Positions 5,353 through 52,397 of a stretch of 64,000 nt of DNA are shown piece after piece (the stretch's first letter is position 1; each line of letters starts with the position of its first letter). The position numbers and the translations under genes were made by a program. The stretch is taken from positions 1-64,000 of the IMG/VR virus record IMGVR_UViG_3300028840_006907; one strand, 5' to 3'. Origin of the DNA: a virus. The notes below the pieces were generated by a model. That model saw only the letters and a list, made by a program, of their open reading frames with translations, was not told the DNA's origin and made no database searches.

Positions 5353-6360
5353 TTAATCTACCCATTGAATTTTTCTACGGTACTGACCTGTTACTTCATC
5401 TATATCAGAGACATTTCCTGCTTCCTTTACTATTAAATTTAATTTACGTTTTAATTCTAGCTGAAGATCATCACTTTTTATTATTTCGGGAGAAGTATGT
5501 TTCTCCAAAAAATTATTTTTTAAATCAAGCAATTGTTTTTCAATGCTCACATCTCCAACAAAATTGAGTTCTGAAAAATCATCAATAAATTTTTTAAGTG
5601 AATTAATAGTAGGGCCTTTAACAATTTTCCCTGATTTCATATTGGTGGCGATTTTATCACAAAGAGTTACTACTTGTTCACGAAGATTTGTAACAACCTC
5701 ATTGATAAAAGAACCAATCTTTTCTTGGGCCTCTTTCTGATAAACATCGTAGGCAATATTCTCTTTTGCAATTTTATCTTCAGAAACTTTTCTCATTTTC
5801 GGTAGAGCAATTTCAAATATATTCCAGGTTAAAGAGAACCTATTTCTTAATGAAGTTGTGCTTGGATAGTATGATTTTATTCGGTCAAGAAAATTTGTGA
5901 CGAATTCTTCCTCTTCGTTTTCTTTACCTTCAATACTGAATTCATGAACACCTATTTTTGTTTGTCGGTTATAGGCAGCTTTGGCTGCTTCCTCATAAAT
6001 AGGTAGCATCTCTTTTCGTAATTTGTCGTAATCAACAATCAGGTTATCGATTAATTTATTATATGCCTCCTGATATTCCTGAAGAGTTTGCAGTATTTTT
6101 AAAAATTTCTTTTTGGGTACAAACCGTGCTGAACTTATAGGGAATTTAAAACTGTTCGTCTCAACTAGAAACCGAGCTTTACTTTCAATAGATCTGAATT
6201 TATGTATGGTTTCTTTTGGAACGAGCATCTTCTTACCAAGAAGATAAACATTAGATATAGTGTCTTTTTCTAATCCCAAGTCTTGAGCAGTCAGGATTTT
6301 TGCTCCAGTCCAGAACCGCACTTTAATTTCAACTAAAACACCATCTTTAAATATATCCAT
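5353..6360 (-). CDS. DUF3150-like protein (plasmid/phage-associated)
   Basis: N-terminal VLVEIKVRFWTGAKILTAQDLGL pattern recalled as typical of DUF3150; 335 aa. Confidence 0.4.
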   Translation of the reverse strand: MDIFKDGVLVEIKVRFWTGAKILTAQDLGLEKDTISNVYLLGKKMLVPKETIHKFRSIESKARFLVETNSFKFPISSARFVPKKKFLKILQTLQEYQEAYNKLIDNLIVDYDKLRKEMLPIYEEAAKAAYNRQTKIGVHEFSIEGKENEEEEFVTNFLDRIKSYYPSTTSLRNRFSLTWNIFEIALPKMRKVSEDKIAKENIAYDVYQKEAQEKIGSFINEVVTNLREQVVTLCDKIATNMKSGKIVKGPTINSLKKFIDDFSELNFVGDVSIEKQLLDLKNNFLEKHTSPEIIKSDDLQLELKRKLNLIVKEAGNVSDIDEVTGQYRRKIQWVD

Positions 6361-6386
6361 AATTATTTTCCTATCATTAATAAGTG

Positions 6387-6420
6387 CTGTCCCTTTAATG
6401 AAAAAGGGACAGTGTTTTTT
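6387..6420 (+). terminator. hairpin plus T-run oriented for plus-strand transcription
   Basis: ctgtcccttt...aagggacag stem followed by tgtttttt, overlapping stop of 6419-7981 gene. Confidence 0.35.
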
Positions 6421-7981
6421 ATAAGTTTAATTTCCTTTTACCTATTACCTGTTCAGCCTTCATCTCTATTGAAGCTTTTTTCACTCTACGTTTTTCAGAC
6501 CATTCACGGCCTTTCTTAATATCCTCGGCATAAAGCTGTGCTGTAAGTGATACTTCTTTAGCACTTGTAACAAGATCTTCAGTGGAGATTTCCTGATTTT
6601 TGCTGAATGAAAATTTCAGAGTATCATTAATCCAAACTTCAATTTCAGATCCACTAAAATCTTTAGTGGATTTAACTAATTGCTTTATGTCGAAGTTGCT
6701 GGGGTCACGATTTATTTTTCCCAAATGTATTGAGATAATTTTCTCTCGTTCACTATCATAAGGGAAATCAACCCAGAAGATTGCATCCATACGACCACCA
6801 CGAATTAGTTCAGGAGGTAGTTTCGTTGCATCGTTTGAAGTAGCTGCAATGAATACATCAGTTGTTCTTTCAGCCATCCAGGTTAAAAGTGTTGCTAGCA
6901 TTTTTTGAGAAGTCTCATGAACATGCCCACTTTTATTATTAGGAAAAGCTTTTTCGATTTCATCTATTCGTAAGACACAGGGAGCATTTGCATCAACGAT
7001 ACTGAGACATCTTCTTATTTTCTCTTCTGATTCTCCTACAAGACTGCCTAAGAGTGCACCTACATCAAGACTGAATAATGGTCGTTCCCAAACATTGGCG
7101 ATAACTTTTGCAACAAGAGATTTCCCGGTTCCAGGAGGGCCTACGAATAGGGCACCTTTGGGAGGAAGTATTCCATATTCTCTGGCTTTCTCAGTGAAAC
7201 AATTCTTTCTAACCAGGAGCCATTCTTTAAGGTTATCAAGTCCACCAATGTCATCAAGAGTTTCTGTTACACTAATAACATTTAAGAGCCCTGTGTTTTT
7301 AACAACTGTGGCTTTTTCTCTATTAATAACATTAATGTCAAGACATTTTCTTTCAACAATGGAAAGAGAATAAGCATTCTCAGCTTCATCAGATGTCATT
7401 CCTAAGGCTGCTTCAATAAGGGAAGTATCGTTTTTGGGGTACTCTATGGAATCTTCAACTGATCTAGCGTTTTCATAAGCTCGTTGACATACTTTTCTTA
7501 AAGTATTTGTATTTGGAAGTTTAAAATCAATTACAGTTATTTCTTTCTTTAATTCATCTGGTATTGATGAACAGCAAGAAACAACAGCCAAAACTCTACC
7601 GGTAGATCTGCAGATTGGAATTATATTTCGTATTTTTCGTTGAATAAAATCTTTTTTAATATAATGGTGGAAATCTAATAGAAAAAAGATAGAATTCTCT
7701 TCCACCTCTTCTGAACTTATCCAATTAAGAGCCAACATTGGATCATCTGTTTTAGTTTTTATATCTAATTTATTTTCTAAAAGGATATTATTATCATTTA
7801 TTTCTCGGAGTTTGATTCCATCAACTCTGTCCCAAGAATAAAATTTATAATTTCCTTTGTCAAGTTTGTTCATTTCATTTGCTAGGGTTCTTATCGCCCT
7901 ATGTTCTTCATGGGTCTGTATCCACAAAATTGTATAACCGGCACGTATATAATTTGAAAAGATGTGTTCTTTATTTTCCAT
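6419..7981 (-). CDS. AAA+ ATPase with N-terminal domain of unknown function
   Basis: Walker A GPPGTGKS, Walker B VLRIDEIEKA, sensor region TSNDATKLPPELIRGGRMD. Confidence 0.85.
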   Translation of the reverse strand: MENKEHIFSNYIRAGYTILWIQTHEEHRAIRTLANEMNKLDKGNYKFYSWDRVDGIKLREINDNNILLENKLDIKTKTDDPMLALNWISSEEVEENSIFFLLDFHHYIKKDFIQRKIRNIIPICRSTGRVLAVVSCCSSIPDELKKEITVIDFKLPNTNTLRKVCQRAYENARSVEDSIEYPKNDTSLIEAALGMTSDEAENAYSLSIVERKCLDINVINREKATVVKNTGLLNVISVTETLDDIGGLDNLKEWLLVRKNCFTEKAREYGILPPKGALFVGPPGTGKSLVAKVIANVWERPLFSLDVGALLGSLVGESEEKIRRCLSIVDANAPCVLRIDEIEKAFPNNKSGHVHETSQKMLATLLTWMAERTTDVFIAATSNDATKLPPELIRGGRMDAIFWVDFPYDSEREKIISIHLGKINRDPSNFDIKQLVKSTKDFSGSEIEVWINDTLKFSFSKNQEISTEDLVTSAKEVSLTAQLYAEDIKKGREWSEKRRVKKASIEMKAEQVIGKRKLNL

Positions 7982-7998
7982 TTTTCAATTCCTTGAAT

Positions 7999-8202
7999 TT
8001 AAAATTGATTGACTATCTGCTTTATTACTAAAATTCTATTAAGGATTTTATTGTAGGATAGATTTAATTCGTTTTGAATATCTTTAAATGAATAGTTATT
8101 CAGAAAATAAAAAGATGCTATAGTATAAGTTATCCTATCTACTTTTGACTTTAAATAATTCATAATGTCTTTGGAATAATTATTTGCATGTGGCATATTC
8201 AT
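7999..8202 (-). CDS. sigma-70 region-4-like HTH protein
   Basis: ITYTIASFYFLNNYSFKDIQNELNLSYNKILNRI is paralogous to C-terminus of 8180-8800 product. Confidence 0.35.
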   Translation of the reverse strand: MNMPHANNYSKDIMNYLKSKVDRITYTIASFYFLNNYSFKDIQNELNLSYNKILNRILVIKQIVNQF

Positions 8203-8800
8203 TATCCTTTGACTTTGAAAACTTATATACTATTTGTTTAATTTTTGTAATTTTTCTGAGGATTGTATTGTAGGATACTTTTGCAGTATCTTGAATTTCT
8301 TTCATTGAATAACAATCCAGAAGATAAAGACATGCAATGAAATAAGTTATATCATTGAGTTGATTTCTTAGATATTTCATGGTTTCATCAGAGATCAAAG
8401 TATCATCTATTGTTTCGTTAAAGTTAGGCCGGGTAGTATAATCAATATGATTTTTAAGGGTTTTATTATTATTCCTTTCTTCACCATCACTATTATTTTC
8501 ACGCATTGTGATATACATATCAATAGGGAAAAATTTAGGTCTTCGTGATATTGTTCTTATGTAATGAAGGGCATAGCCTTGAACTTTATGTACAAAATAT
8601 GTTTTTAAATAACATCCTTTTGAAAGATCATATTGTTCAAGTAACTCGGATTCAGCTAGTTTTAAAATGAGGTGTTGAAACATCTCACATGGTTCAACAA
8701 TTTTCACAAATTTCATAATGTGAAAATTTAAAATATAATCAATTTCTTCTCTGTTTAGGGTATAGAATTCCCAGAAGTCAGGGTGATATTTTAAATCCAT
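8180..8800 (-). CDS. putative sigma-factor-like transcription protein
   Basis: C-terminal ITYFIACLYLLDCYSMKEIQDTAKVSYNTILRKI resembles sigma-70 region 4.2 HTH. Confidence 0.4.
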   Translation of the reverse strand: MDLKYHPDFWEFYTLNREEIDYILNFHIMKFVKIVEPCEMFQHLILKLAESELLEQYDLSKGCYLKTYFVHKVQGYALHYIRTISRRPKFFPIDMYITMRENNSDGEERNNNKTLKNHIDYTTRPNFNETIDDTLISDETMKYLRNQLNDITYFIACLYLLDCYSMKEIQDTAKVSYNTILRKITKIKQIVYKFSKSKDNEYATCK

Positions 8801-8809
8801 AATAAAACC

Positions 8810-9064
8810 TCATTTTGTGAGACCATCAATTTCTTTCTGGACATTGGTCCAATATTCATGGTCGGTTCCGTTTCCTTTAATTGTGTTAATTTTTTCTCGA
8901 ATCCTTTTTGTTTCTTTCGAGATTTGTCTTTGTGTATTTATGTTTGAAACAGCTCTGTCAGATAGATCATGTGACAGAGCATCAAATGATTTTCCTATAG
9001 CATTCATGATCTTTCTAAGAAAGATCAGTATAGCGATAAGTCCGATAAATGCTAAAAGGGCCAT
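8810..9064 (-). CDS. small membrane protein
   Basis: N-terminal hydrophobic helix ALLAFIGLIAILIFL. Confidence 0.4.
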   Translation of the reverse strand: MALLAFIGLIAILIFLRKIMNAIGKSFDALSHDLSDRAVSNINTQRQISKETKRIREKINTIKGNGTDHEYWTNVQKEIDGLTK

Positions 9065-9220
9065 GTAAGCCTCCTTTATTTTTAACCACAGTATGGATTA
9101 ATGTTAAAACATTTTTCCTTTTTATTTTTATTGCATTTCTCTTTGCATAGAGTACATAAAACCGGAGCAATTTTCGGGTGAAACCATGGACTGAATACCC
9201 GCTCACCGTCGAATACTAAT

Positions 9221-9499
9221 TCAATAGGTGTTAAAATCTCTGTTTTCTTCTTCATTATCTACCTCTGTATCTTGATAATACTCTGATTTCATTTCTCTAT
9301 TTTCTGTTTTATTACCAAAGGCTTTTTCAATAAATTCAGTTTTTTCAATACATTCATTACCTACAAAGCCCTCAGTTTCTTTATGGACAGTTTTACCATC
9401 CCATTCAAATGTTAATTTTATTTCAGGCATTGTTTTCATTCCTTTTTTGATTTGCTTCTTCAAATAGTTTGATAATAGTGCTATCATGAATAAATTCAT
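9221..9499 (-). CDS. hypothetical protein (start uncertain)
   Basis: ORF overlaps upstream gene; internal Met likely true start. Confidence 0.3.
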   Translation of the reverse strand: MNLFMIALLSNYLKKQIKKGMKTMPEIKLTFEWDGKTVHKETEGFVGNECIEKTEFIEKAFGNKTENREMKSEYYQDTEVDNEEENRDFNTY

Positions 9500-9743
9500 G
9501 TTCTTTTATAAAACCATGCTCTTCAAAAGTACTTCTTATTCCATGCATGATTAAATTGTAACGATTCATTAAGTCAGGAATTTTATCATCGGATTTAAGA
9601 ATGTTTATCATTTTCTTTCTATGTTTAATATTTATAATGATTGAGGTAATCATAATAGCAATAATAAAAGCCACAATAGAAAAAACTATTGTCATTACTA
9701 TACTTACATCTTGTAGAAAAAATTTTTGAATATTATTATACAT
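9423..9743 (-). CDS. membrane protein
   Basis: Hydrophobic helix VMTIVFSIVAFIIAIMITSIII. Confidence 0.4.
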   Translation of the reverse strand: MYNNIQKFFLQDVSIVMTIVFSIVAFIIAIMITSIIINIKHRKKMINILKSDDKIPDLMNRYNLIMHGIRSTFEEHGFIKEHEFIHDSTIIKLFEEANQKRNENNA

Positions 9744-10134
9744 AAGCTCTTAATACTATACGATCCTCTTCATCAACAGTTTCTTCATAACTTAAACACA
9801 TTGAATCATATTCTGATTTGGCCCTTTCAACATTATAATAAGTGAAAAGTTTCTTCTGCCACTCTTCACCATATCCATTTGCTTCATCAATATGAGCTAT
9901 ATAATTTCCTTCAACAGTTTGTTCAAAACCGAAGTCATTATGGTAATTACCAATATGTTCTTTACGGATAATAATATGACCTAGTTTTTCTGTTGGATTT
10001 CCTTGCCAATCATTTAACTTATTTGCTATATCAAATATCTCAATCTGCTCCTCGGTAAAACCCATTCGAATCAAGGCTTTAACCAAAGAATCTTTATCGT
10101 TGATTATTGTCACTATGTCAACGTAATGACTCAT
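9736..10134 (-). CDS. hypothetical protein
   Basis: 132-aa ORF. Confidence 0.5.
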   Translation of the reverse strand: MSHYVDIVTIINDKDSLVKALIRMGFTEEQIEIFDIANKLNDWQGNPTEKLGHIIIRKEHIGNYHNDFGFEQTVEGNYIAHIDEANGYGEEWQKKLFTYYNVERAKSEYDSMCLSYEETVDEEDRIVLRAYV

Positions 10135-10281
10135 ACATTTTCCTCGCTCTGATATTGTAAGTTTAATAATTTGAGGTAGTAAGGTTTAAAATAAACAGGA
10201 ATAAAAAACCTGTCAACACTTTTTTAATTGAGATCAATTAAAAATTTTTTACCTAGAAAAATACCTCAATTTAATCGATTT

Positions 10282-10761
10282 TTATTGATGATGCTCGATG
10301 GAATTTCCTCGAAAAAAAGGATTCGAAAATGTTCCATCTTCATCACCGGTGAAATATACCCAACCACTGTCAACGAAATTAAATTTATTACTTAAATATT
10401 TATATTTTCGTTCAAAAGCTTCTCTATCGGTATAAATAATACAAGTTAAAGCGCTGACTGTGTGGGGGTGTTCTTCTATAAATTCAGAATCCAGATCTTT
10501 TTTTTCTGATTCATAGGATAAAAGATCTGCAATTAATATAAAAGCATTGTATTTAGCGGTTAATTGTTTGAATTGTTTTCTGAATTTCGTTATATCTTCA
10601 GCAGTAATTAAATCAATATCATAAAAGATAAGCTCATATTTATCTGTTACTCCAAAAAGCATAGGAGGTAGGTTCTCAGTTGCTACCAATTGCGCCTTAG
10701 AATCCTTAATACATTCTTGAGCTTTCTCTTTTAACATCTTTAAATCCATCATTATACGCAA
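10282..10761 (-). CDS. hypothetical protein
   Basis: 159-aa ORF overlapping upstream gene end. Confidence 0.5.
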   Translation of the reverse strand: MRIMMDLKMLKEKAQECIKDSKAQLVATENLPPMLFGVTDKYELIFYDIDLITAEDITKFRKQFKQLTAKYNAFILIADLLSYESEKKDLDSEFIEEHPHTVSALTCIIYTDREAFERKYKYLSNKFNFVDSGWVYFTGDEDGTFSNPFFRGNSIEHHQ

Positions 10762-11786
10762 ACCTTTTCATTTAATTTTTTAACAATCTTTTTGTTTGTT
10801 AATCTTTCAAGTTCGCCATCCAATATATCATCATAAGCAGTCTTATCTTTACCTGGAATGATGTCCCAGGCATATGTTCCGTAATTTTCCTGTACATGTT
10901 GCATCAGATTTTTGATTTCAACTACTTCATCATCATTGAGGTAACCCAAAACATATGCAACACCAACTTTTGTAGGTAACCCATATTTACAGATTAATTC
11001 AATGGGAGCAAAGGCATCATCGGAAAATTTATTTTCCAAGACACAGATACTGGCTTCTGCAGTATGTCCTGCTTCGATATATCCTTTTAATTGTTTAGCC
11101 TCTTTTCGTAATGTACTGGCATTTATATCCTTCTTAACCAGATAATCGACAATTTCTTCTGGCAATCCGTATTTCTGGATTTCCTTTCTTAATTCATTCT
11201 CAATCTCGATCTCAGTATTTTCTTCTTCATAATTAGATAAATCATTTGCTAGCCCTCTCATATTAGGAGAGAGTTCTGGATAATACTTATAGATAGTATT
11301 CAGGAAAAGCATCCGTTTAACAATACTGGCTTTTTTATGGAGTTGATATTGAATCTTCATATACTGAATAAAATTGGAACGTAAAGTGTTATCAGTATCC
11401 AGAGCTTCGGGAGCCCATCTTAAATCAGAGTCAATGATGTTACCACTCTGCCATTCCTGAAACCAGGCAAAATATATCTGATTATTTTCTTTGTCTCTTT
11501 TATATTTGAGATCTTTATCAATGAATCGAACTTTGAATTGATTCATAGGATCATTGGGATCATCAATTGTTCTGACTCTTCGTGCCATCCTTTTTTCATG
11601 TATGATACGTTCAAATCTCTCTTCAACTTCATCCTGGGATAACATTCTAAGAGGTCTGAATATAAATTCAAATATTTGATAAATAACATAGAGTATGAAA
11701 CTACCAACAATGAGGTAAATCATATCATACTGTAATTTATCTGTCTTATTCTGTTTAGGTGCTGTTGGAGGTAAATTACTTTTCAT
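10752..11786 (-). CDS. membrane-anchored protein
   Basis: 344 aa; hydrophobic helix IYLIVGSFILYVIYQIF near N-terminus; overlaps upstream gene. Confidence 0.5.
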   Translation of the reverse strand: MKSNLPPTAPKQNKTDKLQYDMIYLIVGSFILYVIYQIFEFIFRPLRMLSQDEVEERFERIIHEKRMARRVRTIDDPNDPMNQFKVRFIDKDLKYKRDKENNQIYFAWFQEWQSGNIIDSDLRWAPEALDTDNTLRSNFIQYMKIQYQLHKKASIVKRMLFLNTIYKYYPELSPNMRGLANDLSNYEEENTEIEIENELRKEIQKYGLPEEIVDYLVKKDINASTLRKEAKQLKGYIEAGHTAEASICVLENKFSDDAFAPIELICKYGLPTKVGVAYVLGYLNDDEVVEIKNLMQHVQENYGTYAWDIIPGKDKTAYDDILDGELERLTNKKIVKKLNEKVCV

Positions 11787-12096
11787 CGGTTCTGTATTCC
11801 TTTATATATTTTTGTTTTGAATTTCGGTATACTTCTTGAACTCTTTTCTTTAATTCTTTACTATCGATATATCCAGTGGATTTTAAATCTCTGATAACTC
11901 GTAATTTTGATCTATTATATTTTTCGATTTCATAAGTACTGACTGAGTTATGTGATTTATTGACCGCCCAGTCACAGGCGAATTTTCCACAACAGAGTAA
12001 TAGTAATAATAAACCTATTCTTATGCCCATTCCAATAATCATAAAGATCGGATTAACATTCTTTTTCATATTTTCGAAACGTTCATCGGCATACAT
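11776..12096 (-). CDS. small membrane protein
   Basis: Helix IFMIIGMGIRIGLLLLLLCCG. Confidence 0.45.
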   Translation of the reverse strand: MYADERFENMKKNVNPIFMIIGMGIRIGLLLLLLCCGKFACDWAVNKSHNSVSTYEIEKYNRSKLRVIRDLKSTGYIDSKELKKRVQEVYRNSKQKYIKEYRTDEK

Positions 12097-12099
12097 AAT

Positions 12100-12354
12100 T
12101 TATTCCTCTTGAAATTCTTTATAATCTTTAACAACTTCACTCCAAGGTTTGTGCTCAGTTCCTCGACAGAAAGCAACAAAGCCTTCCAGGAAGTAACGAC
12201 CACCTAAGAAAAGGACATATAAAGTTACAAGAAAGAAAGCCAACCGCATAATTTTTTGTGGCACTCTTTTATATCCTTTTTTCTTCTGCTTCTTAGGTCT
12301 TTTTAATTGGACCTTTTTATTAAATTGTATCTCATTAAGAAATTCGTTGCTCAT
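12100..12354 (-). CDS. small membrane protein
   Basis: Helix LAFFLVTLYVLFLGG; 2-nt gap to FtsK-like gene. Confidence 0.45.
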   Translation of the reverse strand: MSNEFLNEIQFNKKVQLKRPKKQKKKGYKRVPQKIMRLAFFLVTLYVLFLGGRYFLEGFVAFCRGTEHKPWSEVVKDYKEFQEE

Positions 12355-12355
12355 A

Positions 12356-13540
12356 TTATCCTCTTACATAATCAGTTACACAGTTAATTTCATCATCACT
12401 TATCCAGGCACCGTGATATCGTTCAGGTTCAGAAGCACCAGGATAAATCATTAACATATCTCCCTTACCGGCCAGAGCTTCAGCTCCATTGCAATCAAGA
12501 ATAACTCTGGAATCATTTTTGGATGATACTTGGAATGAGATCCTTGAAGGCATATTGGATTTAATAAGACCAGTGATAACTTTAACGATAGGCTTTTGAG
12601 TTGCAAGTACCAGATGGATACCTACTGCTCTGGCTAATTGAGCCAACCGTACGATCATTTTCTCAAGTTCTTTACCTGAAGTCATCATAAGATCAGCCAT
12701 CTCATCAACCACAGTTACTATATAAGGAAGTTTTGTATCGGAATTTTTATTAAAACTTTCGATATTTCTTACTCGATAATCAGCTAAGAGTTTATATCTA
12801 CGATCCATTTCTTCAATTAAATCTGAGAACACATGCACCGCTTCTGAGGGCTCGGTAACCACAGGGCATCTCAGGTGGGATAAATTATTATATGACGCCA
12901 TTTCCACTCTCTTGGGATCGACAAGGACAAGCTGGCATTCATCTGGTGTTCGAGTAAATAATATTGAAAGAAGAATACTATTTATACATACAGATTTACC
13001 TGATCCAGTTTGACCTGCGATTAAAAGATGAGGCATAGTAGTCAAATCGATTATTTTTGGATTACCAATAGTATCGGTTCCAAGTACGATGGGAATCTTG
13101 GTATTGGAATCAGTGGTAAAGATATCACGGAAACCGATAATGGATCTTGTTTCATTCATCATTTCTATTCCAACACAAGCTGTACCTGGAATGGGTGCTT
13201 GGATTCTGATATTGGATGACATTAAAGCCATTGCGATATCTTCAGTGATCTTTTTAATCTGAGCAATCCTTACACCTTTTGATAATTTCAGTTCATATCG
13301 GGTAACCACTGGGCCATGTTTAATATCCTGGACAGCAGTATCGAATCCAAGTTCAGCGATCCTGTTTTCAAGATCATGAGAGCTTAAACTGTTGGGTATT
13401 CTATTGGATGAATACTCGTTTAAGAGTCCTAAATGAGGTTTTCTATATCTTTTGTTTTTCTTCTTTTTACATGCATCTTCCTCGGAATTAAGGAGTTGCA
13501 TTACATTTAAGAGCTTTCTGAATTTTGTTGATTTGTTCAT
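12356..13540 (-). CDS. FtsK/SpoIIIE-family DNA translocase motor (alpha/beta domains only)
   Basis: GPVVTRYEL, APIPGT..VGIE, Walker A GQTGSGKS, Walker B VVDEMADLMM; no N-terminal TM or gamma domain. Confidence 0.8.
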   Translation of the reverse strand: MNKSTKFRKLLNVMQLLNSEEDACKKKKNKRYRKPHLGLLNEYSSNRIPNSLSSHDLENRIAELGFDTAVQDIKHGPVVTRYELKLSKGVRIAQIKKITEDIAMALMSSNIRIQAPIPGTACVGIEMMNETRSIIGFRDIFTTDSNTKIPIVLGTDTIGNPKIIDLTTMPHLLIAGQTGSGKSVCINSILLSILFTRTPDECQLVLVDPKRVEMASYNNLSHLRCPVVTEPSEAVHVFSDLIEEMDRRYKLLADYRVRNIESFNKNSDTKLPYIVTVVDEMADLMMTSGKELEKMIVRLAQLARAVGIHLVLATQKPIVKVITGLIKSNMPSRISFQVSSKNDSRVILDCNGAEALAGKGDMLMIYPGASEPERYHGAWISDDEINCVTDYVRG

Positions 13541-13556
13541 AATTCCTCCACAATAT

Positions 13557-13571
13557 ATTATACGAGATCTC
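13557..13571 (-). promoter_or_regulatory. GAGATCTC palindrome fused to TATAAT box upstream of FtsK-like gene
   Basis: Minus strand reads GAGATCTCGTATAAT, then GGAGG and ATG at 13540. Confidence 0.4.
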
Positions 13572-13698
13572 TTAAAGAGATTCCAGGTTTTTCTTGGGGC
13601 AGAAGTCTATTTTCTTTTATATCAAACCTTTACAAGAGAAAAAATTAAATTAATAATCTTTTGATATTATTGCCTTTGTTTACAAAGAAAGGGTTATA

Positions 13699-14712
13699 AT
13701 GAAATATTTAATTTCTCATCAGATAAAAGTGTTGGCGAATTGTTTAGAGAACTATAAAGAGGTATGGGATATAGTTCCTATAATGATGCGGATCTCTTTT
13801 GAGAATCCCAAATTAAGTATGAAAGAGATTCAGGTTAAAAGTAAGATGGAAAATTATGGGAATCTTTTTTCAAGAATAATGGCAGATTTAAAAACTGCTC
13901 AGGAAAAGAATATTGTTTTCAAAAGACCTCATAAAGTTTTTAAGCAAGCGGATGATTTGCTTGTGTTATTTAATAAGTTGACAGGTAAAAAAGAAACCAC
14001 AAGTGAGAGTTCTGAAAATGAGTTATTAGATATTGTTAATATCCTTTCTGAAAATGTCAAACCTTTATCAAAAAGACCAAAGTGGGAAATTGAAAATCTT
14101 AAGGTCATGGATGATATCGATGCCTTAATGAAGAAGTTTCCTTTTACCATTCAAACGGTATTGCAACGCTCCATAAAAAGGAAAGAAGAAATAGAGCAGG
14201 AATTGGGAAAAGGTGTCACAGCAAAAAGAGAAATAAAAGTGTATCTCGATATGGATAGTTGTATCACCGACTGTGACAAGGCTATCAGGAAGCTAGGACC
14301 GAAAGTTGCCAAAGGTTTAGCAGATGATGCTTCCGAGGAAGAGAAGCAATACATGTATGATAAGATTGAAGAGAAGGGGGCTGAGTTCTGGTCTGAAATG
14401 GAATGGATGCCCAAAGGTGAAGAGCTTTGGAAAGTGGTAAAGAAATATGATCCTGTTTTGCTGTCCTCACCAGGATTATTTAAATGGGCTCCTGGTGGAA
14501 AGAAAAATTGGGTAGATAAAAATATTCCAGGAACAACTTTGTATCTTGATATTGACAAATATCAATGGGCTGAACCCGACTCAGTTCTCATCGATGATCG
14601 GGTTTCAAATATAGAGAGTTGGAAAGAGGCCGGTGGTGAAGCCATCCTTTATGAAAATGATCCAGAACTCGTTAAATTAAAACTAAAAGAGATCATCAGT
14701 CAACCGGGGTAA
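13699..14712 (+). CDS. protein with C-terminal HAD-like 5'(3')-deoxyribonucleotidase-type domain
   Basis: YLDMDSCI (DxD-type) and C-terminal VLIDDRVSNIESWKEAGGEAILYEND; only long plus-strand gene in the left arm. Confidence 0.45.
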   Translation: MKYLISHQIKVLANCLENYKEVWDIVPIMMRISFENPKLSMKEIQVKSKMENYGNLFSRIMADLKTAQEKNIVFKRPHKVFKQADDLLVLFNKLTGKKETTSESSENELLDIVNILSENVKPLSKRPKWEIENLKVMDDIDALMKKFPFTIQTVLQRSIKRKEEIEQELGKGVTAKREIKVYLDMDSCITDCDKAIRKLGPKVAKGLADDASEEEKQYMYDKIEEKGAEFWSEMEWMPKGEELWKVVKKYDPVLLSSPGLFKWAPGGKKNWVDKNIPGTTLYLDIDKYQWAEPDSVLIDDRVSNIESWKEAGGEAILYENDPELVKLKLKEIISQPG

Positions 14713-15269: not shown

Positions 15270-17330
15270 TTATTCCACAGTGCGAACAAGTAAATATTTA
15301 GCTCCATTATATGTTGGAAAGTATGAATAATAATTTCCTCTATTGAAGAAACTTTCGGTCATAGTAAATTTTACCATTGGATCAATTACTGATGGACCAG
15401 TATAATCAGTTTGTGATTCACCTGGAATCGCATTTTCATATTTATCATTCAATCTGATCTCTCCCAGGACCACTACACCATTATTAAATGCGTAATGGAA
15501 TTCAGCTTCAGTAGAAATTCGGAATCCATTCTTGGTCAGATCCATTTGAATATCCAAACTATCAGTATAAGTATAAGCTGTATCCAATCCAGCACCTTTT
15601 GATTTCTCGTTACAGTATTTTATTGCTTCAAAGTAATTACCTAAACTGTAGGTAGTAGTATCAAACCAGAAATCATAACTGAAACTGACATCGATAGGAG
15701 GTAAAGGAAACCAATGATATTGGTATACATTATTCTGTAATTTACCGAACATGGTAGATTGATTTTTCGATTTTATCTTATACTCACCATTAAATAGGAA
15801 AAGAACTTTAAGTGTAACAGTATCCAAAGCAGTATTACCATCATCATCGGTAACCCGAAGGACACATTCAATAACAGAATCTGAGTTCATTGGAATAACA
15901 TATTCATATTTACTGGTATCTGTAGCAGATTCATCTGTAACAAATGTTCCGGTATTCCCAATGTCCCATTCCCATTTTACAATGTGACCATAGCCATCTG
16001 TGGCAGTACCATGAAGAATAACTGTATCTCCTACAACAATCATAGAGTCACTGTTATTAACGAGGAAAGAAGGTCTGCACTGTCCTTCAACAAAGGTACT
16101 CGCTATAGGCTCATCTTTGACCACTGTAACAGTTATTTGATCTGAAGATGTGTTACCATCATTATCAGTAACTCGAACCACATAGACCATATCACCATTT
16201 CTTTGTCCGGTGACATCGGGAACAATCACTGAGGTGTCACCTGTGCTTGTTTCTTTAAATCCTTCACCATTAATATCCAGTTCCCATTTTGAGATTCCTC
16301 TGCTACCGATAGGGTCAGTGGCAATACAGGTAATATGGATTGTATCATAGATACTAACAGTAGTATCATTTCCTATAATCTGTACTTCTGGTTTTGCATT
16401 TTCTGCACTAAAGGGAGGAATTTCAATATCACCAGCTATACTATTGAAAAGAATATTTGGACTTTGACCGATAAGTTTATCTTGGTTATTAAATACATCC
16501 ACATACACATTATATTTATTTGTACCTACAGAATAAATGAAGTAAACGAAACCACTATAGGTATTACTGGAAGTATTATGCCAGAGTTCAGCGGTCTTGG
16601 TACCATTGATATCATCACCAGTAATATTGGCTTGGATAAGGCTGATTGTATCAGGGAAAAACATAGGTAAGTATAAGTTTCCATAGATATCTCTCTGTAT
16701 GACAAACAGATCCGGTAGGGTATCAATCCATTCACTGATATTGGTAGTAGAGAGTACTTGGTTATCTTTAATCAGATTTAGAGTATCATTAATATCATCT
16801 TGTGATAATCTAGCAAAGACACCACCACTGATTGTGGCATTGTCCCCGATCCGGGTTAAACTTGGTTTACCTCTATCATAGAGACTTGGTGATTTAAAGT
16901 TATGTACTTTATTGCCAATCTTTAATTGAACGATATACATTTGTGCTGATAAACCAGTGGCAGGATTAATTGAATAGTTACCAGGATCAAGTTTTCGGTT
17001 TAAAGCAGTGAAGACATTTTGACCACTCAGATTATATACCTTAATAGAAACCTGAGTTTTCTTAAGAACCGGGAACCAGAGTCGAGAGTTATCATATTTA
17101 ATTGTATTAAGGGATACTGAAGATTGGTTTTTAATATCATTGGAAAGTTTTGATAAGATATAGATACCATCAGCACCGGTAGTATCAGAAATACCTTGTC
17201 CTTTTAATGTCGCAATAACGCCAAACATCGGACTGTTATTGTTGTCCAGAACCTTACCTGTAATATATAAGTCCTGGGCATTAACTGTAATTAATAAAAA
17301 TAAAACGATAAGAATAAAAGATTTGTACAT
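15270..17330 (-). CDS. secreted multi-domain protein with CarboxypepD_reg-like and PKD-like repeats
   Basis: Signal peptide MYKSFILIVLFLLITVNA; GKVLDNNNSPMFGVIATLKGQGISDTTGADGIYIL; two VRVTD(N/D)DGNT PKD-like units. Confidence 0.7.
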   Translation of the reverse strand: MYKSFILIVLFLLITVNAQDLYITGKVLDNNNSPMFGVIATLKGQGISDTTGADGIYILSKLSNDIKNQSSVSLNTIKYDNSRLWFPVLKKTQVSIKVYNLSGQNVFTALNRKLDPGNYSINPATGLSAQMYIVQLKIGNKVHNFKSPSLYDRGKPSLTRIGDNATISGGVFARLSQDDINDTLNLIKDNQVLSTTNISEWIDTLPDLFVIQRDIYGNLYLPMFFPDTISLIQANITGDDINGTKTAELWHNTSSNTYSGFVYFIYSVGTNKYNVYVDVFNNQDKLIGQSPNILFNSIAGDIEIPPFSAENAKPEVQIIGNDTTVSIYDTIHITCIATDPIGSRGISKWELDINGEGFKETSTGDTSVIVPDVTGQRNGDMVYVVRVTDNDGNTSSDQITVTVVKDEPIASTFVEGQCRPSFLVNNSDSMIVVGDTVILHGTATDGYGHIVKWEWDIGNTGTFVTDESATDTSKYEYVIPMNSDSVIECVLRVTDDDGNTALDTVTLKVLFLFNGEYKIKSKNQSTMFGKLQNNVYQYHWFPLPPIDVSFSYDFWFDTTTYSLGNYFEAIKYCNEKSKGAGLDTAYTYTDSLDIQMDLTKNGFRISTEAEFHYAFNNGVVVLGEIRLNDKYENAIPGESQTDYTGPSVIDPMVKFTMTESFFNRGNYYSYFPTYNGAKYLLVRTVE

Positions 17331-17639: not shown

Positions 17640-18146
17640 TTATTTTTTATTGTTTTTGATTTTTAATAGATTCATTTTTGTTTTAAGTGTTTTTTCATTA
17701 ATCGATAATGCAGTCGCAACTTTTCCAGCAGTTTTAAATTGATGAAATAAAGCTTCAATGATAACTTTTTCTTGTTCATCTGTGACATTTACATGTATCC
17801 CTAATTTCTTGATTCGAGCACGGACTGAAGACACACTGGTCTTTAATGCTTTTGCAGTATTTTGAATGTTATATTTATTCTTTTTCAGAATATTCTCAAA
17901 CCATTCTTTTCTTTTCTCAGGATCTTTTGGTTCTCCTTCCAGGTAACCATAATCGTTATCAATTCCTAAACGTTTCATTTGTTCATAAATAGTTTGGGGG
18001 GATTTACCCAGTGCTTCTGCAACTTTCTTACCGTTACCATATTGATTTAAAAGGGCTAAAAGAATAACTTTTTTCTTTTTATCTTCTTTTTGAATACGTT
18101 CTTTAAAACGTTTTTTCTTTACTTTTGAATCTAATTTGGTTGTCAT
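17640..18146 (-). CDS. DNA-binding protein with three tandem Fis-type-like HTH motifs
   Basis: KVAEALGKSPQTIYEQMKRLGI, NTAKALKTSVSSVRARIKKLGI, KVATALSINEKTLKTKMNLLKI. Confidence 0.55.
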   Translation of the reverse strand: MTTKLDSKVKKKRFKERIQKEDKKKKVILLALLNQYGNGKKVAEALGKSPQTIYEQMKRLGIDNDYGYLEGEPKDPEKRKEWFENILKKNKYNIQNTAKALKTSVSSVRARIKKLGIHVNVTDEQEKVIIEALFHQFKTAGKVATALSINEKTLKTKMNLLKIKNNKK

Positions 18147-20973: not shown

Positions 20974-21882
20974 TCAATACTTCGACTGATTACATCCATG
21001 ATTAAATTTGTATTCATTTAATTCATCATTGGACATATGTCCATGTTTCTTGATCGTTTCTTCTAAAATCTGAGGTAATAACTTTTCACCCCAAACTCCC
21101 ATGTTCGGGACAATCTCTCCTCTTGAATTTTTGGATTTGGTAGGGTCTCCTTCAAGAGCATTGGCTCTGATTTTATTTCGTTCCAGTAGCTCCCATTCCT
21201 CATAGTCCTCACGATAAAATCTGTACAACCATAAAAGTTCGATCTCACTCATGAAAGGACATAATAAACAGTTCGATGGATAAGGCACATGCAAGCCCGT
21301 AGAGGCCATGTAATCCTGGCAATCCTTTCTATCCATTCCCATCTCTATGAGTGGATAGATAACCTCTATGGCTTTCTCCTGCCATTTTGGGCGCTCACCC
21401 TTGTTAACACGTTTTTCTTCTCCTTTGGCAATACCGATAAGCATATTGATTTTATCATATGTTTCAGCAAATTGTTTCAATCCTTTCTTTCTTCCTGATT
21501 TAAATCCATATTCTTTTTGAATCCAGTATTCGAGATATTTATATATAGGTCTCAATTTAAGTCTTTCGGTACAAGTTTTGGGAAAACATTTGCTTCCAAT
21601 TCTATTTTTTGTTTTATAGAAAAATCTTAATGTTTGCCAGTCGGGAGAGTGGAATCCCATGTCGTTTGTAAGATGAACAAATTCTACTACATTTTGAGAA
21701 CAGAATTCCTTTATAAATTGTATATGTTTATAGGTATGGGGATGCTCATCACCAGTATCGGCCATGATCACCAAAAGCCGTCCTGGTGCATATTTTTTTC
21801 TGAAATTGTTATCGAGGGCGTACTTGTAAAGTAAAGTGGTGCTGTCTTGTCCGCCCCCGTAACTTAAGACCGTAAGTTCCAT
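20974..21882 (-). CDS. PAPS-reductase/ATP-sulfurylase-like (adenine-nucleotide alpha-hydrolase) protein
   Basis: N-terminal LSYGGGQDSTTLL PP-loop variant of SGGxDS. Confidence 0.65.
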   Translation of the reverse strand: MELTVLSYGGGQDSTTLLYKYALDNNFRKKYAPGRLLVIMADTGDEHPHTYKHIQFIKEFCSQNVVEFVHLTNDMGFHSPDWQTLRFFYKTKNRIGSKCFPKTCTERLKLRPIYKYLEYWIQKEYGFKSGRKKGLKQFAETYDKINMLIGIAKGEEKRVNKGERPKWQEKAIEVIYPLIEMGMDRKDCQDYMASTGLHVPYPSNCLLCPFMSEIELLWLYRFYREDYEEWELLERNKIRANALEGDPTKSKNSRGEIVPNMGVWGEKLLPQILEETIKKHGHMSNDELNEYKFNHGCNQSKY

Positions 21883-22707
21883 CTATTTATTTTTCTCCTG
21901 GTTTGAAGTATCTTTTTTATAAAGGATAAGATCCTTTATTTCATGAGGATTATAATAGAATTGTGTACTCGGATTTTCTTGAGCCATTGAAGTAATTGTT
22001 TTCAGTAATTCTTTTATTAATTGATTTTCTATAGTTTTATATTTTTGAGATGGTAATGGCTCTCCTTTCTTTATAAATAAATTTCTTCCTTTGCATAGTA
22101 AAAGTACTCTACCTCTATTAATCAAATAAGAAGCTTTTTGTTTTGTTATCCCAACGGATTTAGCCCATTCATCAATAGACTGATAACCTGATGGTGGTTT
22201 AATATCTTTCAGTTTTGGTTGAAGAAGAGAAAGGTTTGAAAAGAATTGTTTATCTTTATGTCTATTTATTCGATTACCTTTACAATGTCTACAAGGTTTT
22301 TTACATAAACCTATAAAATGTATTCGTAGATTTCCACAATTTTTACAAAATCCAAGTCTAGGTTTATTTAAAAATAATGTTTTTAGACGCTCGGGATTAT
22401 GATAAATCTGTCTATATTCTTTTCTCTCATTAATTGTTTTGTCTTTGTCATAAGGTCTTGTAGGGATACCTGTATAATATAAATCTATAGCCTCTTTATT
22501 ATATTCTAAAAAAGATACCCAGGCTTTTTCAACTAATAATTCTGGGTCTTTTTTAGCAAGACTTACATGTATATCTTCAAAAAATATGTTATAATTTGAG
22601 AGTGTTTTAAATCCTTCATAAAGCTGTTCCATATCCCATACATGAAAGATATACCTATTAGCATGAAAGCAATTGAAGGCATCTAAAATTTCATCATAAT
22701 CCATCAT
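21883..22707 (-). CDS. zinc-finger protein with HTH-like segment
   Basis: CKNCGN...CKKPCRHCKG cluster; abuts PAPS-reductase-like gene. Confidence 0.5.
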   Translation of the reverse strand: MMDYDEILDAFNCFHANRYIFHVWDMEQLYEGFKTLSNYNIFFEDIHVSLAKKDPELLVEKAWVSFLEYNKEAIDLYYTGIPTRPYDKDKTINERKEYRQIYHNPERLKTLFLNKPRLGFCKNCGNLRIHFIGLCKKPCRHCKGNRINRHKDKQFFSNLSLLQPKLKDIKPPSGYQSIDEWAKSVGITKQKASYLINRGRVLLLCKGRNLFIKKGEPLPSQKYKTIENQLIKELLKTITSMAQENPSTQFYYNPHEIKDLILYKKDTSNQEKNK

Positions 22708-41465: not shown

Positions 41466-42086
41466 TTACCAGTCCCAGCACCGGGCACATTCCAAACATC
41501 CCGATACTTCATGCCAGACTGCAAGACAGTCCAGAGGATGTTTAGGAACGTTTTTAACTACTGAACCATGACAGTGGTAGGGAAATACTATAATGATTCG
41601 GGGATCATCTGGAACAGTATCTACGTCTCTCCTAGGGCCAAAACACATCTTACCTGGAAATTTACTCCAGACTTTCTTTGGAGTTGTAGCATCGATACTT
41701 AATAATAATCTGAGATTAGGTAATTGATCATTAATGACCTTTGCTATTTCAGGTTTCCTTGTCATGCCATAGAACATAGTTTTAGGGCATTCATTAGCGA
41801 GGTTAATAATATTATTCACGTGATCAGGTAATAGATCACCACATCCATTTAAACGTACTGCATGACAGTTTTTACATTCGACTATGACTTTGAGTAGATC
41901 ATTACCGGTGAAGTAATCAGAAACATAGTTCTGTTTTTTCACGGTATTGGGTAAAGCCATATGTCCGGATCGGGCATAGCAAAGTTTCTGACATAACTTA
42001 CTAGGTCTACAATGCCCTTTCATGGGAAAGTTTATTGAGACACCAGTTTTCTTGTTTTCAGAAATGATAGTTAATGGAGTATACAT
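41466..42086 (-). CDS. Cys-cluster protein, possibly phage Gp37/Gp68-like
   Basis: N-terminal GHCRPSKLCQKLCYA cluster; weak resemblance only. Confidence 0.3.
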   Translation of the reverse strand: MYTPLTIISENKKTGVSINFPMKGHCRPSKLCQKLCYARSGHMALPNTVKKQNYVSDYFTGNDLLKVIVECKNCHAVRLNGCGDLLPDHVNNIINLANECPKTMFYGMTRKPEIAKVINDQLPNLRLLLSIDATTPKKVWSKFPGKMCFGPRRDVDTVPDDPRIIIVFPYHCHGSVVKNVPKHPLDCLAVWHEVSGCLECARCWDW

Positions 42087-46877: not shown

Positions 46878-48008
46878 TTAACCAACAAGATCTAAGATCT
46901 TATCAAGGGTTTCATTCTTTTCTTTCATTTGAACTGTAGGATTAGGATTATGTGAAGTCTCTTCAGGAGATTCAATTAATTCCAATACAGTTTCGAGAGC
47001 ATTGGATTTTAATTGAGCACCACTACCTACCCACGCACTATCGGCACGGGCTTGTTCTTGAGTAGTATATCCAGACGTAGATGTTACTCTACTAGGTCTT
47101 TTATGATCCACGTAATTAGTAACAGCATTCACCAAAGCCATACCCGTTCCAGCTTGTTCCGGGATAGCATTATCATCATTATCATTAAATAGTTTAGCTA
47201 TCTCAAGGGCTTTATCAGATTTCTTATCTGATTGTTCCCATTTCTCACCAAAGATACGAGTCATAGTCTGTGCAAAAAGTTCTTTGGTAACTTTATGAGT
47301 AATAATCTTTTCAAACTTTTCTTTAAGAGAATTTATATCCTGTTTTAATCCGGTTTGAATCTCAGTGGTTATTTTATTAAGTTTCTCTTTAGCACCTTTG
47401 GTATGTCTTACTTTAATCATTGCATCCTTAGTGCCTTTAGATAAGGCAAAATTCAAAGTGTTCTGACATACTACCCGTACATCGGTGAGCATAATTGTAT
47501 TACTCATAGTTCCATCATGAGCACTCATAAACATGATAAATGTTTCGTGTTTATCATTTCCGATGGAAGCGTTAAAGGGGACACGGGCCAAAGCCCAGAC
47601 ACGTTCTCCACGTCCTAAAACTCCGGCAGCTTCATAATGTGCACCATCAATCTGTTCTAAGACATTATCAATCCATCCACCGATTTCAATATTTTGCGTA
47701 GGTTCATAGGTATTACCTACGATACCAAGGGCGCTTTCCTTACCAGTTAAATCGGAACGAAAGATACCAAATTGATTCGGGAAAACATATCCTTTAGGTA
47801 CAGTGCTTCCAGGTTTCCATAAAGGATTCTTAAAGAATAACGGCCTTTTTTCGACCGTCCAATCTAATTGAGCCAGTTCATAAGCTTCTTTCCAGGTCAT
47901 TGCATGATTGACCATTTGTCCTAGTTCATGCCACGGTAAACCATGTTCATCTATGGCATATGCAGCCGATACTAAACCGTTTTTTGCTGTAAATAAATTA
48001 TGAGCCAT
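46878..48008 (-). CDS. DUF932-like phage/plasmid protein
   Basis: N-terminal AYAIDEHGLPWHELG...MTWKEAYELAQLDWTVEKRPL pattern recalled as typical of DUF932. Confidence 0.5.
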   Translation of the reverse strand: MAHNLFTAKNGLVSAAYAIDEHGLPWHELGQMVNHAMTWKEAYELAQLDWTVEKRPLFFKNPLWKPGSTVPKGYVFPNQFGIFRSDLTGKESALGIVGNTYEPTQNIEIGGWIDNVLEQIDGAHYEAAGVLGRGERVWALARVPFNASIGNDKHETFIMFMSAHDGTMSNTIMLTDVRVVCQNTLNFALSKGTKDAMIKVRHTKGAKEKLNKITTEIQTGLKQDINSLKEKFEKIITHKVTKELFAQTMTRIFGEKWEQSDKKSDKALEIAKLFNDNDDNAIPEQAGTGMALVNAVTNYVDHKRPSRVTSTSGYTTQEQARADSAWVGSGAQLKSNALETVLELIESPEETSHNPNPTVQMKEKNETLDKILDLVG

Positions 48009-50908: not shown

Positions 50909-51517
50909 TTAGTTATAGCGAGTTATTCCGTCACTGGATTCAAAATCCATTGCGAGTATGGTATATAATTCCGTTTCCTGTGTATTAATTGTGTCTGGAT
51001 TGACTTGTCTGGAATATCCATCACTGCTTTCAAAATCCATTGCGAGTGAAGCAAATTCATTTGATATGGTTACAAGCGAGTTAACTGGTTGAATTTCAAC
51101 GATTTCAGTCTGGGTTTGGACTTCTTTAATACATTCATCCATTAAACTATTTAGAGTATCTAAGTCGGTAGTTTTTACGAAGGTTTCCCAGTCCTCTTTG
51201 GACATATTAAAATATTCTCGTACGACTTCGAGTTTATCTATATCTGTTATAGTTTTTACTTTGTTCCCGTTTTGCCAAATACTTTTAGCTTTATTAGTAT
51301 ATATAATCTCGCCTGTAAAGTTATGGTTGAAATTTAACCAGCGAGTCTCGTTATTTACTGACGGGTCAATGACTTCAGCGAGTTTATTACCAAAACGGTT
51401 TATACGATAACGGCCAGTACATTGAACGTTTATCCATTCACGAATTGTTTTTCTTGCGGTTTGGTTTGTGCCATTAATAACAGCACCAATTAATTTATCG
51501 TTCATTAGTATAGACAT
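50909..51517 (-). CDS. hypothetical protein with duplicated C-terminal LAMDFESSDG motif
   Basis: First gene of the leftward array next to the control hub; about 35-nt DNA direct repeat inside its 3' end. Confidence 0.5.
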   Translation of the reverse strand: MSILMNDKLIGAVINGTNQTARKTIREWINVQCTGRYRINRFGNKLAEVIDPSVNNETRWLNFNHNFTGEIIYTNKAKSIWQNGNKVKTITDIDKLEVVREYFNMSKEDWETFVKTTDLDTLNSLMDECIKEVQTQTEIVEIQPVNSLVTISNEFASLAMDFESSDGYSRQVNPDTINTQETELYTILAMDFESSDGITRYN

Positions 51518-51572
51518 AATATTTCCCCTTGTCTAATGTATATATTAACAGTCAATTATTTTTTTCTGTTGT

Positions 51573-51940: not shown

Positions 51941-52312
51941 CTTTATATAGGGGAGAGCCAGAAATCGCCCGTTTGATGTGCGTGATATATACGCCCGAAA
52001 ATGTTCCCGGTTCTAACCCCCCAGTGAAATACCCTTTCCACAAAAGTGAAATACCCCAATACAACTATACCATACCCGACCATACCCCACCCCCGGGACC
52101 TGTCTTCGGGATCATCATCATGCGCTTGCTTTTCGTGCGCTCAATGCCATACCCACCCCCTTTTTGTAAAGATTTTTGGAAGTTGGAAATGGATGGAGTT
52201 AGATTGGATTTTTTGGATGGTAGAAAATTTTGGCTGGTGGGAGAGACCCCACAGTAAAGTACCCGGTTGGTTCAGGGAAGTACCAATATGGTTCAGTGGA
52301 GTGTCTTTTTTG

Positions 52313-52370: not shown

Positions 52371-52397
52371 AAAGCTCTCAGAACCCAGTTCAAAGAA

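Follow-up and report, generated by a model that had tools for sequence, protein, structure and literature searches.

Five-gene operon with an FtsK-type motor

The window analyzed here, a stretch of 64,000 nucleotides (positions 1 to 64,000 of the IMG/VR virus record IMGVR_UViG_3300028840_006907), is part of a 469,617-bp contig and carries a minus-strand operon of five tightly packed genes at positions 10282–13540. The first gene (12356–13540) encodes an FtsK-type double-stranded DNA (dsDNA) translocase motor of 394 amino acids (aa) composed of the alpha and beta domains, as identified with Pfam, PHROG, PDB, NCBIfam, and a family alignment. It is followed by the genes of two single-pass membrane proteins, SP1 (84 aa, 12100–12354) and SP2 (106 aa, 11776–12096), of P344, an N-terminally anchored all-alpha protein of 344 aa (10752–11786), and of P156, a soluble alpha/beta protein of 156 aa (10282–10752). 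The initial annotation of this locus had described a four-gene block and proposed a split translocase whose membrane anchor is supplied in trans. The four open reading frames (ORFs) were found on the minus strand at the coordinates it had given, and the order of a motor followed by three genes with membrane helices was reproduced; the gene count was too low, since the fifth coupled gene, P156, had been overlooked. The module is real, conserved, and previously undescribed.

The junctions of the operon were read directly from the sequence. The TAA stop codon of the motor gene is separated by 1 nt from the ATG of the 84-aa gene, and that of SP1 by 3 nt (ATT) from the ATG of the 106-aa gene. SP2 and P344 overlap by 11 nt, with the P344 ATG at 11786 and the SP2 stop at 11776–11778, and P344 and P156 share a TAATG overlap. 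The true start of P156 is the ATG at 10752, which gives 156 aa, and not the TTG at 10761. These junctions, taken as sequence features, show the five genes to be translationally coupled. The tight coupling noted earlier was therefore right, although the spacing of 2–4 nt given for it was slightly off, the distances being 1 nt, 3 nt, and an 11-nt overlap. A Kyte–Doolittle scan revealed a single membrane helix each in SP1 (residues 34–52), SP2 (residues 17–35), and P344, and none in FtsK. The two small proteins had been called hydrophobic; this holds for their single helices, whereas the rest of each protein is highly charged.

The operon is preceded by a 158-nt divergent intergenic region (13541–13698), in which a Shine–Dalgarno sequence GGAGG (13545–13549) lies 4 nt ahead of the FtsK ATG. 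A putative sigma-70-type -10 box, GTATAATA (13556–13563), is located 6 nt further upstream, so that both elements occupy positions 13545–13563 of the minus strand. A GTATAAT(A) box was found equally far from the ribosome-binding site in three loci related to this one (L002, L012, and L013), and the related locus L096 has GTATACT at that position together with a TTTACA -35 element. In total, the position of a GTATAAT(A)-type -10 box was conserved in five of seven loci.

The motor matched the Pfam families FtsK_SpoIIIE (PF01580; 1.5e-54, 185 bits with a cutoff of 24) for the beta domain and FtsK_alpha (PF17854; 3.5e-22, 79 bits with a cutoff of 22.9) for the alpha domain, and no match to Ftsk_gamma (PF09397) was obtained in the same scan. 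The N-terminal multi-pass membrane domain and the linker are also absent, as no segment reached the hydropathy threshold and only about 30 residues precede alpha. The first 25 or so of these residues form a conserved helix specific to the family (MN..T.L+KKL.vM+.LN), situated just ahead of alpha. At the other end, the protein stops about 5 residues beyond the last helix of the beta domain, where cellular relatives in the alignment run on into a gamma domain of about 70 aa. A search for a stand-alone gamma gene found none, either in the window or in the regions flanking the related loci; as a positive control, it did pick up gamma in an unrelated viral FtsK (L006). Thus, Pfam, hydropathy, and alignment agree with the initial description of a motor that has the FtsK motifs but neither gamma nor the N-terminal membrane domain.

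The best solved relative of the motor is the alpha-beta portion of Pseudomonas aeruginosa FtsK (PDB 2IUU/6T8B; E-value 3.4e-99). In the alignment with 2IUU, the Walker A (GQTGSGKS) and Walker B (VVDEMADLMM) motifs and the downstream QKP, SRI, and DSR stretches were aligned. The motor also matched PHROG 1358 (FtsK/SpoIIIE-like; 1.4e-95), and weakly PHROG 2666 (terminase large subunit; 3.5e-10). A profile comparison with FtsK, HerA, and TraB had been named as a check of the initial annotation, and it came out in favor of FtsK. Among NCBIfam models, FtsK scored 323 bits, EssC 108 (cutoff 778), EccCa 97 (cutoff 509), and TraB (NF041214) 58 (cutoff 800). The motor has a single ATPase domain, unlike the ATPases of the type VII secretion system (T7SS) with their two or three FtsK-like domains in tandem and their N-terminal FHA/membrane segments, and has neither the membrane helix nor the C-terminal extension of TraB. 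Its match to DUF87 (8.9e-4) was under the cutoff, and the PADLOC HerA matches were 3e-6 or weaker, so that it was not assigned to the HerA or A32/P9 ATPases; the PADLOC scan for defense systems returned only generic FtsK, HerA, and AAA domain matches. Since the FtsK profile scored far above EssC, EccC, and TraB, with HerA marginal, the motor is a bona fide FtsK rather than a distant ATPase of the FtsK/HerA superfamily. The profile scores and alignments show it to be a true FtsK relative that has retained all the ATPase motifs where it aligns to the solved FtsK. From the identity of about 50% to characterized motors and the conserved motif residues, it would be expected to translocate dsDNA as an ATP-dependent hexamer.

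Conservation of the operon and origin of the motor

The conservation of the gene block was surveyed in nine independent related loci. The products encoded downstream of FtsK have lengths (in aa) of 95, 55, 343, and 152 in L002/L003 (512 kb); 53, 97, 103, 347, and 155 in L004 (589 kb); 114, 66, 346, 104, and 152 in L005 (151 kb); 166 (a helix-turn-helix (HTH) insertion), 87, 351, and 155 in L012 (74.7 kb, the same protein being present also on a 474-kb contig); 96, 90, 341, and 155 in L013 (48 kb); and 53, 349, and 157 in L096 (43 kb). In the loci of P0067 (40 kb), P0218 (4.4 kb), and P0109 (302 kb), they are 333 and 174; 126, 108, 74, and 333; and 76, 243, and 164, respectively. Searches with tblastn and alignments identified the proteins of about 340 aa as homologs of P344 with 28–45% identity. 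P344 follows the motor in eight of the loci, and a 243-aa gene takes its place in the P0109 locus, which may be a short form of the P344 family. Farther along, a gene of 152–174 aa is present in all eight loci long enough to include it, and its homology to P156 was recognized by sequence in six; the proteins of about 155 aa share a GW...G(R)F.NPF motif, which is C-terminal in P156.

The order of FtsK, zero to three small genes, and P344 is kept even where identity falls to 52% for FtsK and to 27% for P344. In addition, 16 of the 22 P344 homologs recovered by a word-indexed search lie on contigs equal in bp to contigs of the listed matches of the FtsK clade. Because this arrangement recurs in every related locus examined, it is more than a chance association. 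The invariant set consists of the motor and P344, together with the 152–174-aa gene wherever the contig reaches it, and the small membrane proteins are accessory. A functional linkage between the motor and its partners is well supported by comparative data, since the motor and the P344 family are constant across the related loci. The initial annotation had staked its proposal on the downstream ORFs being conserved with the motor, and their recurrence leaves that proposal standing. The constancy extends to P344 and also to the soluble gene of about 156 aa, whereas the two small proteins, counted by the annotation as part of the block, vary from zero to three per locus. The part of the split-translocase proposal that concerns co-inheritance was borne out by a specific membrane protein, P344, which accompanies the motor in the eight loci.

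Conserved features were nevertheless recognized in both small proteins. SP1 has a conserved basic N-terminus (FLNxVKF..KLKRPKK), followed by the helix and by a single juxtamembrane cysteine on its far side. It was recognizable in five loci, namely the window and L002, L004, L005, and L012; in L013, L096, and the P0067 locus, it is missing or another gene stands in its place. In SP2, a conserved G(K/R)xxC(D/E) motif comes after the helix; by position, helix, and motif, SP2 was recognizable in the window and in L002, L004, L005, and L096. The positional homologs have no BLAST-level similarity, and SP2 is absent in L012 and the P0067 locus. The N-terminus of SP2 is basic in three of the four homologs and nearly neutral in the copy of the window. 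The N-termini of SP1 and of these three SP2 homologs probably face the cytoplasm, because they are strongly basic. In this orientation, each protein would have a single cysteine just past the helix on the outer side, which suggests that SP1 and SP2 may form a disulfide-linked pair.

P344 had no match in Pfam, PHROG, or PADLOC and no significant fold match in PDB or BFVD. When 1.84 billion representatives were scanned exhaustively with HMMER, only 94 clusters emerged, nearly all of 300–380 aa and with one architecture, and P344 was never fused to other domains. Short forms of 238–297 aa keep the membrane helix and the LRWAP / YPEF(S/T)P core. Searches with the single protein and with the alignment found no relatives in IMG/VR, GenBank phages, PLSDB plasmids (72,556), 185,579 species genomes, or PDB sequences; therefore, these databases offer no annotation that can be transferred to P344. 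The structural model of P156 is a helix packed on a sheet, with a predicted local distance difference test (pLDDT) score of 75, and structure comparison returned only insignificant pilin-like resemblances. P344 is a previously undescribed membrane-anchored family, and P344 and P156 are two ORFan families attached to the motor.

A search of 5.8 billion proteins placed the motor in a clade of well over 100 proteins of 386–427 aa with 50–79% identity, all limited to the alpha and beta domains. The clade contigs are metagenomic and reach 469,617 (the contig of the window), 474,422, 512,380, and 589,645 bp. Every aligned member has only a few residues after the final helix of beta, and gamma and the N-terminal domain have been lost across the whole clade. 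The nearest cellular sequences, P0116 and P0120, the latter named Cloacimonadota by its source, have about 50% identity to the motor and retain gamma. In a rough neighbor-joining tree, the clade formed one group, sister to the gamma-bearing cellular FtsK proteins and apart from other viral FtsK-like lineages. The tree and the alignments together show that the motor was captured from a cellular FtsK and then lost the membrane domain, the linker, and gamma. Many of 80 FtsK-like loci from IMG/VR likewise code for helix-free proteins with a gamma-less span after Walker A (approximately 205–260 aa); phage FtsK motors lacking both gamma and a membrane helix are common and widespread in viromes.

Neighboring genes and features of the element

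After a gap of 147 nt, the operon is followed on the same strand by a second conserved block (5353–10134), characterized by Pfam, PHROG, and NCBIfam matches and by synteny. Its genes encode a DUF1257-like protein (9736–10134), a DUF2997-like protein (9221–9499, with the start probably at an internal Met at about 9430 rather than at 9499), an 84-aa membrane protein (8810–9064), a sigma-70/ECF-like factor (8180–8800), a CDC48-like AAA ATPase (6419–7981; PHROG 8638, 1.7e-120), and a DUF3150 protein (5353–6360). The same order was found in L002, L005, L012, and L013 and partly in L004 and L096. Synteny thus ties this block to the FtsK operon, and a machine shared by the two is a candidate only. 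An extra ORF on the minus strand between the DUF1257-like and DUF2997-like genes (9423–9743) encodes a 106-aa protein with a single helix and has no tblastn counterpart in the related loci. Distant pairs of the AAA ATPase and the DUF2997-like protein occur in Aeromonas phage HJ05, where the annotated neighbors of the AAA homolog are all hypothetical, and homologs of the AAA ATPase occur in Rhizobium and cluster O mycobacteriophages. A different gamma-less FtsK-like gene of 403 aa, with a 205-aa gene and then a DUF3150 homolog downstream of it, was found at approximately 10001–12771 of an IMG/VR contig of 466,729 bp (L044). That contig is unrelated, and its DUF3150 homolog has 27% identity to that of the window, which hints at a recurrent association of FtsK and DUF3150 in huge phages.

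Profile libraries were scanned with about 46 of the approximately 56 window ORFs of at least 120 aa, each in at least one library. Divergent from the FtsK operon, a plus-strand gene (13699–14712) encodes a 337-aa protein, the C-terminal half of which matched the phage 5'-3' deoxyribonucleotidase family (PHROG 2643, 2.2e-18). Its N-terminal half of about 170 aa had no assignment; L013 likewise has an NT5C-like gene upstream of FtsK. The minus-strand gene at 15270–17330 encodes a 686-aa protein with a signal-peptide-like N-terminus, a CarboxypepD_reg-like domain, and PKD repeats, and it weakly matched a lipoprotein family of Fibrobacter. Considered alongside the Cloacimonadota-like origin of the motor, this protein hints at a host of the Fibrobacteres–Chlorobi–Bacteroidetes (FCB) group. 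A 168-aa protein encoded on the minus strand (17640–18146) had multiple HTH-type Pfam matches, and the 166-aa protein inserted between FtsK and SP1 in L012 (9210–9710) has the same Pfam HTH signature, which suggests that the HTH gene is a mobile regulator moving around the region. Also recognized were an adenine DNA methyltransferase (1501–2574), a PAPS-reductase-like protein adjoining an unassigned 274-aa gene (20974–22707), a GP88-family protein (41466–42086), and a DUF932 protein (46878–48008), which are typical accessory genes of phages or other mobile elements. All other scanned window ORFs had no match in the profile libraries run; the rest of the window consists mostly of ORFans. No structural PHROG was matched by the neighbors of the operon or by the larger window ORFs scanned, the only exception being the weak match between the motor and PHROG 2666.

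No tRNAs or Rfam matches were found in the window. At about 51500–53100, gene orientation switches from minus to plus and the GC skew changes from about zero or negative values to +0.3; this could be a replication origin, a terminus, or a module boundary. The segment 34900–38900 contains only very small ORFs (at most about 107 aa) and has the strongest negative GC skew of the window (-0.435 at 34–36 kb); no tandem array, Rfam family, or tRNA was found in it. Stop-codon recoding was considered as an explanation for the many short ORFs, and reading TAG or TGA as sense gave no gain.

Several features of the element fit a huge phage, namely contigs of 150–590 kb, dense co-directional small genes, PHROG-type neighbors, homing-type HNH genes in related loci, and absence from cellular genomes. 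A megablast search of GenBank phages with 20 kb of the window gave no match, and thus no close cultured relative.

Putative function and comparison with known systems

We consider it about an even chance that the operon encodes a virus-adapted FtsK pump anchored in trans at the cell membrane, which combines a captured motor with co-inherited partners. In such a system, host RNA polymerase would transcribe the operon early from the conserved TATAAT promoter, and the coupled genes would yield matched protein amounts. P344, with SP1 and SP2 where these are present, would insert into the inner membrane and recruit the motor hexamer, probably via the family-specific N-terminal helix; the motor and the membrane protein would then form a physical complex. 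Without gamma, the motor would neither read polarity signals of the type of FtsK-orienting polar sequences (KOPS) nor activate XerD. It would pump any duplex DNA, independently of sequence because gamma is the domain that performs both tasks, and the direction would be set by tethering. In FtsK, DNA moves from beta to alpha and leaves via the N-terminal alpha ring (PMC7321959). If the motor is tethered by its N-terminus, DNA would be drawn towards the membrane, because it exits the alpha ring and the clade-specific helix lies within the roughly 30 residues ahead of alpha.

Generic DNA transport or handling at the membrane is the best reading of the operon, and any single biological role of the motor is, at best, rather unlikely. 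The favored, speculative role is that the half-megabase DNA of the element itself would be moved relative to the membrane, either to complete entry or to clear a closing septum. In its most specific form, which we regard as decidedly unlikely, this proposal would make P344, with P156 and the small helices, a new membrane adaptor that converts a captured FtsK ring, blind to sequence, into a motor dedicated to genome transport in huge phages. Such a motor would reel the genome of about 0.5 Mb across or along the inner membrane, to complete entry after early expression from the leading end, or for export or segregation.

Several observations weigh against a membrane-anchored phage motor. Many other viral gamma-less, helix-free FtsK motors have no membrane-protein neighbors, and motors of this kind may function unanchored. 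SP1 and SP2 are not universal and cannot be the essential anchor. The topology of P344 by the positive-inside rule is ambiguous, with 61 Lys/Arg residues before the helix and 58 after it (summed over 23 homologs), so the large domain of P344 might face the periplasm and not the motor. The promoter octamer is not enriched in the window (6 found, 5.3 expected), and the promoter call is that of a short motif identified by positional conservation only. Finally, the phage nature of this very large, phage-like element is inferred from the features listed above, because the scanned window ORFs yielded no gene for a capsid, portal, or tail protein.

The same observations can be explained by a soluble, unanchored translocase for host takeover or DNA metabolism, which might strip proteins or restructure the nucleoid of the host or the phage DNA during replication; the membrane proteins would then be separate functions, such as superinfection exclusion or envelope modification, that share an early operon. 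We hold this to be unlikely but worth serious consideration, given that the other viral gamma-less motors have no consistent membrane-protein neighbors, SP1 and SP2 are variable, PHROG classes such proteins as host takeover, and the alpha-beta portion of FtsK alone translocates DNA in vitro (PMC7321959). It accords poorly with the restriction of P344 to the neighborhood of the present motor clade, with a position and coupling kept at 27–63% identity, and with five operon genes that overlap or abut. A further explanation moves the pump to another kind of element: a giant plasmid-like element could export dsDNA from cell to cell in a conjugation-like process, as Streptomyces TraB does with Spd, with an N-terminally tethered motor pumping outwards through a channel built by the partners. 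DUF932, DUF3150, and ParB/KorB-like genes are typical of plasmids and integrative and conjugative elements; the first two are present in the window, the third lies upstream in L096, and the viral nature of the element is unproven in the window. Exit through the N-terminal alpha ring would also give an N-terminal tether export polarity. Still, we regard such export as very unlikely, since the TraB score is far below that of FtsK, a C-terminal domain for clt binding is missing, a dsDNA channel is improbable with single-pass partners, P344 is absent from the plasmids and genomes searched, and the PHROG-type neighbors and HNH endonucleases fit phages better.

The initial annotation had also named packaging and the hijacking of chromosome segregation as candidate roles. 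The unique vertex of PRD1, in which the packaging ATPase P9 is accompanied by the small membrane proteins P20/P22, offers a parallel to an FtsK/HerA-superfamily ATPase paired with such proteins, and a giant phage with an internal membrane could use the motor in the same way. The weak terminase match of the motor and the lack of a terminase gene among the scanned window ORFs would fit this scheme. We nevertheless judge it extremely improbable, as the motor has arisen recently from cellular FtsK, possesses an alpha domain, and is not of the A32/P9 type. Its operon has a sigma-70-type promoter and adjoins the sigma-like factor and regulators instead of structural genes, features that make a packaging role unlikely in general. 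According to a review, no large internal-membrane prokaryotic virus is known (PMC7824862). As regards segregation, the general homology to FtsK could point to a replacement of the host FtsK in chromosome or replicon dimer resolution (XerCD at dif-like sites), and the weaker homology to EssC/EccC to an export ATPase of the T7SS type. Either would be a most improbable function, because gamma is absent from both the motor and its neighborhood, which excludes XerCD-type control of segregation, and the EssC/EccC scores are one third of that of FtsK, and the motor differs from the T7SS ATPases in pairing a single ATPase domain with an FtsK alpha domain. Dimer resolution and capsid packaging are thus disfavored.

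The significance of a membrane-anchored pump can be judged against cellular FtsK, the fastest known dsDNA pump, in which its own gamma and membrane domains normally set direction and place. Here, a virus-like element has discarded both targeting modules, and the bare motor is strongly conserved alongside a private membrane protein family. If the partners tether and orient the motor, the operon would represent a natural modular, re-targeted FtsK and would provide a handle on how half-megabase phage genomes move into, within, and between cells. If P344 is an adaptor for genome transport, the mechanism of DNA internalization or transfer would be new to phages. P344 and P156 are ORFan families that now have a testable functional context.

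Compared with cellular FtsK/SpoIIIE, represented by the P. aeruginosa protein, the alpha and beta domains of the motor align end to end, and the same hexameric pump mechanism would be expected. Cellular FtsK has a four-helix N-terminal membrane domain, a linker, and the gamma winged helix, whereas the motor has none of the three and instead carries the short clade-specific N-terminal helix; therefore, divisome targeting, the reading of KOPS or SpoIIIE recognition sequences (SRS), and XerD activation would be missing. The Bacillus subtilis protein SftA is likewise a soluble FtsK-type motor without a membrane domain. It is localized by other factors, keeps gamma, and is a chromosomal housekeeping gene, and it is not known to have dedicated co-operonic membrane partners. 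A similar principle of an ATPase with small operon-encoded membrane proteins is found in Streptomyces TraB with Spd, PRD1 P9 with P20/P22, and T7SS EssC/EccC with EssA/EssB, all of which pair an FtsK/HerA-superfamily ATPase with small membrane partners. However, these ATPases have membrane segments of their own or multiple ATPase domains and are distant in sequence, and their partners are unrelated to P344, SP1, and SP2.

Phage-encoded FtsK/SpoIIIE-like proteins (among them PHROG 1358/3551) are also found in Bastille-like Bacillus phages and in cluster J mycobacteriophages. The cluster J proteins (Omega gp203 and KashFlow gp192) have no membrane helix and are 46% identical to the motor over 90% of the query; they are annotated and functionally uncharacterized (PMC4528723). 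They differ in having about 312 aa after Walker A, the size of gamma-bearing forms, compared with about 220 in the present motor; their loci contain neither P344/P156 nor membrane-protein neighbors, and the present clade is separate from them in the neighbor-joining tree. In the literature on phage FtsK function, we found only annotations, such as a Bastille-like SpoIIIE homolog and a Sam46 gamma domain fused to a small terminase, and none on the present family. The gamma-less viral motors of IMG/VR, with forms of 350–400 and 625–710 aa, likewise lack gamma and membrane helices and fall on several separate branches of the rough tree, which suggests that the trimming of these modules is common among viruses. 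Unlike the present motor, they belong to other lineages (at most 50% identity), have other downstream genes, and in no case are accompanied by P344. A bare phage FtsK with neither gamma nor anchor is, in conclusion, already known, and what is new in the operon described here is the dedicated, clade-specific set of partners.

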